This document shows, in pieces, positions 60,976-62,221 of a DNA stretch of 64,000 bases. The notes beneath the pieces are model-generated. The model had not been told where the DNA came from. It worked only from the letters and a program-made list of their open reading frames with translations, and did no database searches. The number at the start of each line of letters is the position of its first letter. Within the stretch, counting starts at the first letter, position 1. Made by a program: the position numbers and the translations under genes. The DNA lies in IMG/VR virus record IMGVR_UViG_3300049012_000071, positions 37,653-101,652 of that record; one strand, written 5' to 3'. This DNA comes from a virus. Taxonomy: Duplodnaviria > Caudoviricetes.

Positions 60976-61245
60976 TCAGTGCGCGCGTTCGGGCGCGGCG
61001 GCGTCCTTCTCCAGCTGCCGCTGGTAGGCCTCGCGGCGGGCGCGGCGCCGGAGCTCCCGCCCGCGGGCCGGTTCGAGGTCGTCGAGGCGCGAGCGGTCGA
61101 AGCGCTGGTCGGCGCGGTACCTGGCGACCTTGGCTTCTAGGCCCCTCACCTTGGACCACAGCCAGAAGATCAAGAGCCCGCATAGCCCTGTGCATGCCGC
61201 GCACACGGCCAGAAGCAGAGTCAAGATCCGCGCCGGTTCATCCAC
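60976..61245 (-). CDS. single-TM protein with charged helical tail
   Basis: ILTLLLAVCAACTGLCGLLIFWLW; overlaps the upstream membrane gene. Confidence 0.6.
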   Translation of the reverse strand: MDEPARILTLLLAVCAACTGLCGLLIFWLWSKVRGLEAKVARYRADQRFDRSRLDDLEPARGRELRRRARREAYQRQLEKDAAAPERAH

Positions 61246-61868
61246 AGGGTGAGCGTTTCATAGCTTACCACGGCGCCGAAGGCGATGAATTGGACCGTGC
61301 GCGCGACGATCCAGTCATCCACGGGCACACCGCGGGCGTAGGCGAAGAGCGCGGACGCCTGACCGACGGTGAGCGCAAGCGGCACGAGATGGTGCGCCAT
61401 CAAGACTTCGCCCTCCCGGAGGCGACGCGCGATCTCGATCCCACCCAGGACGAACACCCCCGTGCAGCAGAGCGCCGAGAACGCGCCGTAGAACCACCAC
61501 CGCGGCTCGAGCCGCAGGGCAGGGTAGGCGAGGGCGGCCCCGATGGCTGCCACGGCCCAGAGCGCCGCAGCCGGCCACGGCGAGCGCCTCCGGAACACCA
61601 CGATGGCTACGCCGAGGAGTGCAGCCGGCCAGCTCAGGAGCAGCGCCGCGTGCGCGTGCAGCAGGAGCGCCTCGGCGCCCGCGTACGGCACCGGCTCGGC
61701 CTCGATGCGGGCAGCGATCGCCCACTGCGCCAGGTCGTGCAGCGGAACCCACAGCAGCGCCAAAGCGACGGGTCGGTAGAACGGCCACATGGCGCGCGTG
61801 CCCCAGCCACGCCAGAGGGCGAGGCCGAGGAGCGCTGCGAGGCTGGTGAGGGCGGACAGCAACGTCAC
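61221..61868 (-). CDS. polytopic (~6-7 TM) membrane protein
   Basis: Successive hydrophobic helices. Confidence 0.75.
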   Translation of the reverse strand: MTLLSALTSLAALLGLALWRGWGTRAMWPFYRPVALALLWVPLHDLAQWAIAARIEAEPVPYAGAEALLLHAHAALLLSWPAALLGVAIVVFRRRSPWPAAALWAVAAIGAALAYPALRLEPRWWFYGAFSALCCTGVFVLGGIEIARRLREGEVLMAHHLVPLALTVGQASALFAYARGVPVDDWIVARTVQFIAFGAVVSYETLTLWMNRRGS

Positions 61869-61900
61869 AAGCCCGTGACGGTATCACGGGCGGTCTCGGA

Positions 61901-62152
61901 TCAGGTGGTGCCCTGCTTACCACCGATGGGCGGGGGATCGACGGGGGCCGGGAGCCGGCCGCCGATCGGAGGCGGATCGATGGAGCGTGGCGCCGTGGCC
62001 GCGTTGAAGGCGGCGATCGCTGTCTCTACGGCCTTGATCTTCTCGCTGAAGTTCAAGGCGCCCATTCCGGCATCCTTAGCGGTCGCTCGATCCAACAGGT
62101 CATCCGCGACACTCAGCAGCTTGTCGCGCACTTGATCAACAGACTTTGCCAT
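61901..62152 (-). CDS. 83-aa peptide with two (I/V)DPPPIGG(R/K) repeats, leaderless
   Basis: TGcTAACGT-N6-ATG; helical N-terminus and repeated C-terminal core. Confidence 0.7.
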   Translation of the reverse strand: MAKSVDQVRDKLLSVADDLLDRATAKDAGMGALNFSEKIKAVETAIAAFNAATAPRSIDPPPIGGRLPAPVDPPPIGGKQGTT

Positions 62153-62221
62153 GCGGTGACGTTAGCACGGCTGCGCCGTGCCTGCGTCCGCTCTCTGACA
62201 ACCCGTTCCCCCAAGGACCAG

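Follow-up and report, generated by a model that had tools for sequence, protein, structure and literature searches.

A phage cassette of a proline-motif protein, a seven-helix membrane protein and a small membrane-anchored partner is probably a new membrane signalling module

What is the role of a small three-gene cassette that runs against its neighbours in a phage genome, and begins with a protein ending in a repeated proline motif? The cassette lies in a 64,000-nt stretch of DNA (the window), the last 64 kb of the 101,652-bp IMG/VR virus record IMGVR_UViG_3300049012_000071, which has ~70% GC and is 81% complete. It consists of three coupled open reading frames (ORFs) on the minus strand, of 83, 215 and 89 aa, with the local codon bias. 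In a preliminary description these had been taken as one operon encoding a peptide with a repeated core, a protein with several transmembrane (TM) helices and a small TM protein. The three ORFs are where they were placed, and the three genes are conserved together, in keeping with a single module. We conclude that the cassette is probably a new membrane signalling module. The same membrane-protein family, with a related proline motif, occurs in host operons for extracytoplasmic function (ECF) sigma factors, which argues for a membrane regulatory module over one of peptide maturation. Our favoured reading is that the motif and the membrane protein cooperate in such a module, which the phage carries in a form rebuilt from that of its Sorangium host. 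We put this reading forward tentatively, at a little under an even chance.

The first gene of the cassette (61901-62152, minus strand) encodes the 83-aa protein, which is of cytoplasmic type and for which there are more than 20 homologues. Its C-terminus, ...SIDPPPIGGRLPAPVDPPPIGGKQGTT, has the layout IDPPPIGG-R-LPAP-VDPPPIGG-KQGTT. The first copy of the motif, IDPPPIGG, occupies residues 58-65 (61958-61981, minus strand) and is followed by Arg. The second, VDPPPIGG, occupies residues 71-78 (61919-61942, minus strand) and is followed by KQGTT and the stop codon. The core of copy 1 reads GAT CCG CCT CCG ATC GGC GGC and that of copy 2 GAT CCC CCG CCC ATC GGT GGT. Five of the seven codons differ and every difference is synonymous, exactly as had been claimed. 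A model made with AlphaFold2 (AF2) from a 14-sequence alignment has helices at residues 2-24 and 35-53 that form a two-helix hairpin, of which the N-terminus is a charged amphipathic helix (MAKSVDQVRDKLL...). The tail is predicted to be disordered, with a predicted local distance difference test score (pLDDT) of 38-57. This is as expected for a linear motif, and we count it in favour of our reading. The protein belongs to no family of Pfam, PHROG, PADLOC or NCBIfam; the best PADLOC match, PDC-M02B (12 bits, E 0.013), is not significant.

The family of the small protein has more than 20 members with a DPPP(I/D)(G/P)G motif, in ORFs of 64-127 aa. The N-terminal part is of at least three unrelated types, and the tail is retained across them. 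One type is the two-helix hairpin of AF2, to which the window belongs. Another is a WEY...GWEAYA...FFLKRP domain that is weakly DUF4177-like, and a third is present in locus L020. Within each type the N-domains are conserved as proteins, and none of the three types has the hydrophobic h-region of a Sec signal. The tail has one to three copies of (I/V)DPPP(D/I)(G/P)G, with the degenerate forms EDVPPDGG, VDPPQPG and WEPPDPG. In 19 canonical copies from 11 loci the residues D, P, P, P and the final G are unchanged, and when their codons are compared in pairs there are 401 synonymous and 0 nonsynonymous differences. The comparison of codons thus supports selection of the Pro/Gly motif at the peptide level, which had been proposed from the two copies in the window.

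The protein that carries the motif behaves differently. Between the window and L003 the membrane protein is 89% identical and the small protein only 37%, so the N-terminal part is either fast-evolving or exchanged while the tail is frozen. A swapped N-terminal part and a frozen, disordered tail are typical of a short linear motif carried by a genuine protein that acts in trans. The motif is also rare as DNA. A DPPPxGG pattern has only two sites in the 101.6-kb phage record, both of them the cassette copies, and zero matches in a 14.9-Mb Sorangium genome. This rarity, together with the recurrence of the motif in more than 20 homologous small proteins, sets the cassette well apart from chance. 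A search for cores that covary with the membrane protein had been proposed as a check in the preliminary description; the same DPPPDGG is found beside membrane proteins of 33-81% identity to that of the window.

The second gene (61221-61868, minus strand) encodes the 215-aa inner-membrane protein, with a G+C content at third codon positions (GC3) of 0.88. Where six to seven TM helices had been estimated, the AF2 model has seven (pLDDT 72.6, predicted template modelling score 0.71), and we therefore call it the 7TM protein. Its topology was predicted from a positive-inside count of Lys and Arg over 64 family members. These number ~10 in the odd loops and C-tail compared with 4 in the even loops, and the N-terminus is therefore predicted to be outside and the C-terminus inside. 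The best-conserved residues, P61, G64, Y115, P116, R119 and W186, fall in predicted outer (periplasmic) loops 2, 4 and 6, and a second conserved set, R32, P33, A35, R95 and W98, at the inner ends. P116 is the sole invariant residue across the 64 members.

The 7TM family is large. A profile search gave 383 clusters at E ≤ 0.001, and the relatives obtained by searching with the 7TM protein are 33-89% identical. Pfam contains no fitting family for the 64 members; three unrelated families each match one member weakly. Foldseek against the PDB gave nothing at E ≤ 0.001 (matches E ≥ 0.05). VIA-align superimposed the 7TM model on adhesion and class B G-protein-coupled receptor (GPCR) 7TM domains with Z 13-14 and a root-mean-square deviation of 3.4-4.0 over ~200 residues. 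Since Z 14 is typical for helical bundles, we claim no function from the fold. Membership of the GPCRs or microbial rhodopsins was rejected, given that there is no Pfam match, that helix 7 (TVQFIAFGAVVSYETLTLWM) lacks the retinal-binding Lys and that the structural matches are generic. HisKA_7TM (PF16927), a protein-atlas lead (0.86), was likewise rejected, as hhalign of the 64-member alignment against three PF16927 domains gave a probability of 0.2%.

Predicted loop 2 of the 7TM protein (window residues 53-66) has two alleles, one acidic (RIEAEPV-PY) and one basic (AYARAGAARPY). The C-terminal half of the protein has two alleles as well, and recombination shuffles the two pairs independently. 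The allele of loop 2 mostly tracks the presence of I or D at position 6 of the adjacent motif, with L005 mixed; this correlation is confounded by linkage and broken by L005, and serves as a lead only.

The third gene (60976-61245, minus strand; GC3 0.87) overlaps the 7TM gene, as described previously, with 25 nt in common. The account of its 89-aa product as a single-TM protein with a charged tail is also sustained. It has a short N-terminus, one hydrophobic TM helix close to it, and a ~58-aa Arg/Glu-rich helical tail that ends ...RAH and is predicted to be cytoplasmic. It has no family match. None of the three cassette proteins, nor most of their neighbours, has a significant match in Pfam, PHROGs, PADLOC or NCBIfam. 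With the 5027 models of PADLOC, eight of nine scanned proteins had no match and no known defence or exclusion system was recognised. Prediction of a complex of the 7TM, single-TM and small proteins from their own alignments gave a score of 0.00, which speaks neither for nor against binding.

The order of the genes is well conserved. In 11 of 11 distinct phage-type loci checked (the window, L003-L007, L009, L010, L019, L020 and L021; 33-89% 7TM identity) the 7TM gene is followed by that of a small TM-anchored protein with a charged tail. In 12 loci (the same 11 minus L010 and L021, plus L012, L013 and L030) the gene immediately before that of the 7TM protein is the motif gene. The suggestion that a small ORF might always precede the 7TM gene therefore stands for these 12 loci, and fails at L010 and L021. 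In the phage with the L010 cassette the motif gene (L024) has the same promoter geometry as its relatives, has its own terminator and is monocistronic, and it follows that the small protein acts in trans as a protein. The position of the cassette is kept in phages with 33%-identical 7TM proteins, so it is old and fixed in the lineage rather than a recent pick-up. A tblastn search over 50,697 records of GenBank phages gave no match. A phylum-wide search with a broad profile, in which 7 candidates were scored per genome, found nothing beyond the Sorangium genome G001, which is not evidence of absence.

How might the cassette be expressed? The extended −10-like element that had been noted before the small gene is present. 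It has the sequence TGCTAACGT (62159-62167, minus strand) and ends 6 nt before the ATG at 62152, a gap too short for a sequence of Shine-Dalgarno (SD) type. TGCTAACGT-N6-ATG is the geometry of a −10 element that drives a leaderless mRNA, and from this sequence arrangement a leaderless transcript is predicted. A scan with the sigma-70 consensus did not call the element. The geometry GTGCTAnnnn-N6-ATG is kept in nine related loci with 7TM identity down to 33%; the spacing is found in L003, L005, L006, L007, L009, L012, L013 and L019, and a GTGGTA form precedes the stand-alone small gene L024. A stable hairpin, gcccgtgataccgtcacgggc (61871-61891, minus strand), follows the stop codon of the small gene and precedes the GTG at which the 7TM gene starts. 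RNAfold gives it −16 to −25 kcal/mol in the window, L003, L004, L005 and L006, and in L003 the letters of the stem are altered. It has no U-tract, and is therefore no obvious terminator. No SD sequence is visible at the GTG start of the 7TM gene. Contigs from RNA libraries (root metatranscriptomes; relatives of ~90% identity) span 60745-61648 and bridge the junction of the 7TM and third genes; they show neither strand nor level and may include DNA carry-over, and we have not used them as evidence of expression.

The closest parallel to the cassette is found in the chromosomes of Sorangium, where 11 of 19 genomes have homologues of the 7TM protein. Thirteen chromosomal loci in 9 of the 19 genomes contain a distinct class of 7TM paralogue, ~25% identical to the phage protein. 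At all 13 an ECF sigma gene (Sigma70_r2 + r4_2) comes directly after the 7TM gene, which its start overlaps by ~19 nt, and the N-terminus of the linked sigma factor has a conserved hydrophobic helix. Upstream of the 7TM gene, 12 of the 13 have a mini-ORF encoding M(P)I(E/T)PPDP(L/G/H), a hydrophobic helix and an Arg-rich tail. Variation in the codons of its motif is synonymous only, and the mini-ORF is preceded by a leaderless-like TGGTAGCCT-N7-ATG element. In three genomes (39.7 Mb) an I-E-P-P-D-P DNA pattern has 13 matches, of which five are directly upstream of a 7TM gene, so that the association of motif and 7TM gene is not due to chance; one more is just downstream of a linked sigma gene. 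Four of the ECF operons encode an extra small protein downstream, with 2-5 repeats of (I/V)(D/E)PPxP(G/N/H) and a C-terminal TM helix. The host repeats IVDPPFPG, VIDPPNPN and IEPPDPG closely resemble the tails IVDPPNPG and IVDPPPDPG of the phage proteins (P0180). The genome G001 has both a prophage cassette and a host operon of the sigma type. Gene order and motif type match between the phage cassette and the host operon.

Some further features of the host loci may be recorded. The operon of mini-ORF, 7TM gene and ECF sigma gene is found at L015 (G001:C1:4677249-4680863, minus strand), L031-L038 and L040-L043. The ~230 nt upstream of it are nearly invariant between genomes, with a TTGACA box and two copies of CTGGTAGCCT, one of which sits as a −10 element directly before the ATG of the mini-ORF. 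Repeat proteins ending in a hydrophobic helix and RR are encoded at L048:746-955 (plus strand) and L047:2558-3037 (minus strand), and downstream of the sigma gene in L033, L035 and L037; that of L047 lies directly downstream of a gene for a Ser/Thr protein kinase. More distant 7TM homologues adjoin REC-LuxR regulators, and are found behind a 119-aa soluble protein that starts MPGTSDPPRPH (L016:1095-1454, plus strand; the same protein is encoded in L017 on the minus strand). In L018 two tandem 7TM paralogues lie behind a related protein, with the probable start MPTPTTPPIV.

The favoured reading, in which motif and 7TM protein cooperate, would involve three components at the inner membrane. One is the small protein with an (I/V)-(D/E)-P-P-(P)-x-(G/P)-(G) motif, which in the phage is a soluble protein with an exchangeable N-domain. 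The next is the 7TM protein, of one family in phage and host. The last would be a protein anchored by an N-terminal TM helix, the cytoplasmic part of which provides the output; in the host this third protein is the ECF sigma factor, and in the phage it may have been reduced to a charged helical tail. The proline motif would work with the 7TM protein, most simply as a docking or ligand peptide, and the pair of 7TM and single-TM proteins would couple binding of the small protein to an output close to the membrane. With its own promoter of leaderless type and its orientation against the late genes, the cassette could be expressed from the prophage in the manner of a moron. Its role would then be regulation of host or phage: it might interfere with the homologous sigma pathway of the host, act in exclusion, or control lysis or induction. 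The sequences show how the genes are arranged and conserved, the selection on the motif, the swapping of the N-domains, the synteny and the parallel in the host; what we infer is that the components bind, on which side of the membrane the motif would do so, that lysogens express the cassette and what its biological output would be.

Several observations weigh against this reading. The predicted topologies do not obviously place the partners on the same side of the membrane. The best-conserved 7TM residues are in predicted periplasmic loops, and by the positive-inside rule the motif of the host mini-ORF would be outside, but the small protein of the phage has no export signal. The motif is C-terminal in the phage proteins but N-terminal in the host mini-ORFs. 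Pro-rich strings are frequent at 70% GC, and the looser host variants (TPPI, DPPRP) may be coincidental. A small motif ORF was not found at L021, and on the L010 contig SRR24303600_46579 the motif gene stands alone, 9 kb from the 7TM gene. No profile similarity was found between the third protein of the phage and the N-terminal helix of the sigma factors, so their equivalence is positional only. A bolder version goes further. In this the 7TM proteins would be a new class of bacterial seven-helix receptor, with a short (I/V)(D/E)PP(P)xG peptide as the ligand. Those of Sorangium would control the activity of a membrane-anchored ECF sigma factor by means of a tethered or repeat-bearing proline-motif protein, and temperate myxophages would have captured and rebuilt the pathway, either to sense a proline peptide made by the phage, as a kind of communication, or to hijack the sigma response of the host. 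We regard this as rather unlikely.

The mismatch of compartments, with the conserved 7TM face and the host motif outside and the phage protein unexported, keeps alive a version in which the peptide is extracellular. Here the small protein would be a precursor, released for example by lysis and cut at the R or K that follows each GG, and ~10-residue ...DPPPxGG(R/K) peptides would bind the periplasmic face of the 7TM protein in neighbouring lysogens or infected cells. The one to three tandem copies of the motif, usually followed by R, K or a stop codon, are consistent with this, as are the location of the best-conserved 7TM residues in predicted periplasmic loops and that of the host mini-ORF motif, predicted to be outside. 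Within the close group, I or D at position 6 of the motif also goes with the acidic or basic allele of predicted periplasmic loop 2. However, that correlation is confounded by physical linkage of the motif to the adjacent 5′ half of the 7TM gene, and it is broken by L005, which has a basic loop 2 yet an I-type motif copy beside the 7TM gene. The small protein has no signal peptide, its N-terminal part is a folded domain swapped between unrelated types, and Pfam, PHROGs, PADLOC and NCBIfam reveal no family of peptidase, maturase or exporter, either within the cassette or beside it. The same points count against the original proposal that the gene encodes the precursor of a processed or secreted peptide, or of a ribosomally synthesized and post-translationally modified peptide (RiPP). 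The motif is moreover near-invariant across 7TM proteins of 33-89% identity, and therefore provides no strain-specific code, and there are variants with PG at the end or with just one copy, itself degenerate (L013, L019). We think a diffusible signal quite unlikely. It is just as improbable, in our view, that the motif acts during translation, as a stall dependent on elongation factor P (EF-P) near the end of the small ORF (at the start in the host mini-ORF). The stall would tune the coupled translation of the SD-less 7TM gene and those after it, tying expression to EF-P or the supply of proline. DPP, PPP and PPD are among the strongest EF-P-dependent stall sites, and [D/E]PP or PPD is kept in every variant of the motif. 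The 7TM gene, without visible SD sequence, starts 1-37 nt after the small ORF, with a stable hairpin between them in five loci, and since the mRNA is apparently leaderless the downstream genes would depend on coupling. Yet the geometry that a stall would need is not fixed, as anything from ~4 to 55 nt separates the last motif from the start of the 7TM gene, and one phage has a monocistronic motif gene that ends in its own terminator and lies 9 kb away from the 7TM gene. The conserved flanks, I/V before the motif and G/P-G after it, are irrelevant to stalling, the N-domains are conserved as proteins within each type, and the host repeat proteins have up to five copies far from any downstream start.

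Two other explanations start from the host. The phage might mimic it, with the small protein displaying host-like proline repeats to the host 7TM protein or its partners, and the phage 7TM and single-TM proteins titrating the host mini-ORF product or the membrane-anchored sigma factor, so that an envelope-stress sigma regulon is rewired in lysogeny or infection. Gene order, 7TM family and motif type are indeed common to host and phage, the phage tails are close to the host repeats as noted above, and both kinds of locus are present in G001. But phage and host 7TM proteins are only ~25% identical, the exact DPPPxGG form is absent from the 14.9-Mb host genome, and the tight linkage of the three phage genes suggests that they act jointly. 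We judge such a decoy distinctly improbable. Alternatively the 7TM protein might be a membrane processing enzyme or sorting factor, comparable to the exosortase of the exosortase/PEP-CTERM system, that recognises a proline motif beside a membrane helix, with the phage small protein as substrate or pseudo-substrate. This would accord with the conserved residues on one 7TM face and with the tripartite appearance of the host motif carriers, like that of a sorting signal (motif, hydrophobic helix and basic end, e.g. ...ASIEPPDPHAHALGLALAIAVVALRR). However, the phage small proteins have no helix after the motif. Inspection of the 7TM alignments by eye reveals no signature of a protease or sortase (HExxH, GxSG or a family-wide Cys/Arg/His set), P116 alone being invariant, and Pfam and NCBIfam give no match. 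We therefore consider an enzyme of this kind very improbable indeed.

The plus strand of the window has a myophage-type structural module (Mu-type portal, S49 protease, major head protein, tail sheath, tape-measure protein and baseplate). The related loci come from soil and rhizosphere metagenomes and from prophages within Sorangium chromosomes; lysogens with the cassette include strains So ce388, So ce1024 and So ce134. From this we take the host to be a Sorangium-like myxobacterium and the lineage of the phage to be temperate. Genes of the plus strand lie on both sides of the cassette. Those on the tail-fibre side stop 4 nt short of its last stop codon, and the other flank is a block of lipoprotein and small TM genes that in relatives runs on into PG_binding_1/CHAP endolysins. 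No endolysin was recognised in the window itself before the contig ends at 64000. The original placing of the cassette inside a lysis region is thus upheld by synteny with the relatives, but the window stops before any endolysin. Its lysis-side genes (plus strand, 60394-60971 and 62222-63799) encode a TM and coiled-coil protein with a weak match to an Rz-like spanin (PHROG, E 0.004), a 61-aa acidic protein, two lipoproteins, a 2-TM holin-like protein and a 90-aa TM protein. The location prompted us to consider the 7TM and single-TM proteins as a holin and antiholin; there was no support for this, and the 2-TM holin-like gene lies separately at 62692-63051.

The lysis-side block begins with a lipoprotein gene (62222-62695, plus strand), which shares with the cassette a divergent control region of 69 nt (62153-62221). 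This holds a conserved GGTT(G/T)(T/C)CA(G/A)AGAG box, upstream of the ribosome-binding site of the lipoprotein gene. The C-terminal part of the lipoprotein is Cys-rich and similar to a 155-aa protein with a Dicty_CTDC Cys-rich repeat (E 3e-11) that is encoded on the minus strand at 57810-58277, amid the plus-strand tail-fibre genes. A TM-anchored protein is likewise encoded among these on the minus strand (~58355-59100). Outside the window, and >80 kb from the cassette, the phage encodes two proteins of the sigma-70 family (G000:C1 ~13.7-15.1 kb and 17.3-18.2 kb; L045 and L046), with region 2 matches of E 1e-14 and 5e-12. Both have ...VAEDDAVLWG... after region 4, and one has a long Pro-rich C-terminal extension.

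Neither the cassette nor the 7TM family nor the motif turned up as described in the family libraries, among the GenBank phages or in full-text searches of the literature. Sorangium has among the largest known bacterial regulatory repertoires. If our reading is correct, then Sorangium and its phages share an undescribed signalling architecture, comprising an unannotated 7TM family (383 clusters), a linear proline motif as its genetic partner and a membrane-anchored sigma factor. This would constitute a new mode of ECF sigma control and a clear case of a phage rebuilding a signal pathway of its host, and would provide a concrete and testable pair of peptide and receptor in myxobacteria, whose phage biology is to our knowledge almost unexplored. 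Even if the role proves modest, three families of 'hypothetical' proteins gain annotation.

It remains to compare the cassette with known systems. It is like arbitrium in that a small phage gene, with a short conserved C-terminal peptide, lies next to the gene for a candidate receptor. In arbitrium, AimP begins with a Sec signal peptide and ends in one hexapeptide, which differs from phage to phage, and AimR is a cytoplasmic protein with tetratricopeptide repeat (TPR) and helix-turn-helix (HTH) domains. The cassette, by contrast, has no signal peptide, a 7TM candidate receptor, a near-invariant motif and a folded, swappable N-terminal part, and Pfam and NCBIfam show no TPR or HTH family within it. 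The preliminary description was therefore right to set it apart. Clusters for RiPPs, with a conserved leader and a variable core, have the opposite organisation, since here the N-terminal part is swapped (at least three types) and the C-terminal 'core' is invariant; exchange between unrelated domains is also unlike a leader peptide that co-evolves with its maturase. No family of RiPP maturation enzyme, peptidase or exporter was found for the three cassette proteins and seven neighbours in the window, although an unrecognised enzyme is possible.

Nascent-peptide and EF-P-dependent leaders (SecM, MifM, VemP and Pro-rich leader ORFs) resemble the cassette in having an ORF that ends in polyproline before an SD-less gene for a membrane protein, with a hairpin between. 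The cassette differs in the length of the ORF (64-127 aa), its conserved folded domains, the variable spacing and the one monocistronic copy. In the exosortase/PEP-CTERM comparison the host repeat proteins look tripartite, the phage small proteins lack the helix, and the 7TM protein lacks a family-wide Cys/Arg/His set. With tethered-peptide 7TM receptors, the adhesion GPCRs, there is an analogy only, in the seven-helix bundle with N-terminus out and C-terminus in, and in the short peptide of the host mini-ORF tethered to a helix. There is no sequence relation and no G-protein machinery, and we claim no homology. Prophage morons (lambda bor and lom, and two-protein membrane systems of RexAB type) are similar as self-contained reverse cassettes with their own promoter, between tail and lysis genes, and in combining a polytopic membrane protein with small partners. 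The cassette shares no sequence or profile similarity with them, and its position is conserved across phages.

The remaining comparison is with ECF sigma modules, among which are polytopic anti-sigma factors and ECF263 sigma factors with a 5- or 7-TM extension (Casas-Pastor et al. 2021, PMC7826278). The arrangement found here is not among the modules in the main text of that reclassification, and a keyword search of the same text found no proline-motif mini-protein as a third ECF component. No anti-sigma domain (zf-HC2, RskA, FecR) is matched with Pfam in the 7TM protein of the window or the 64 family members, although divergent ones escape profiles. In the phage cassette the third protein lacks a sigma domain by Pfam and NCBIfam, and a sigma gene within the operon is found only at the host paralogue loci. 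The likeness lies in the 7TM paralogues, which are in an operon with the ECF sigma gene and translationally overlapped with it, and in a membrane protein that would control a cytoplasmic output. The host operon differs in having the 7TM gene upstream of the sigma gene, and not at +1, and in a sigma factor that itself carries an N-terminal hydrophobic helix.

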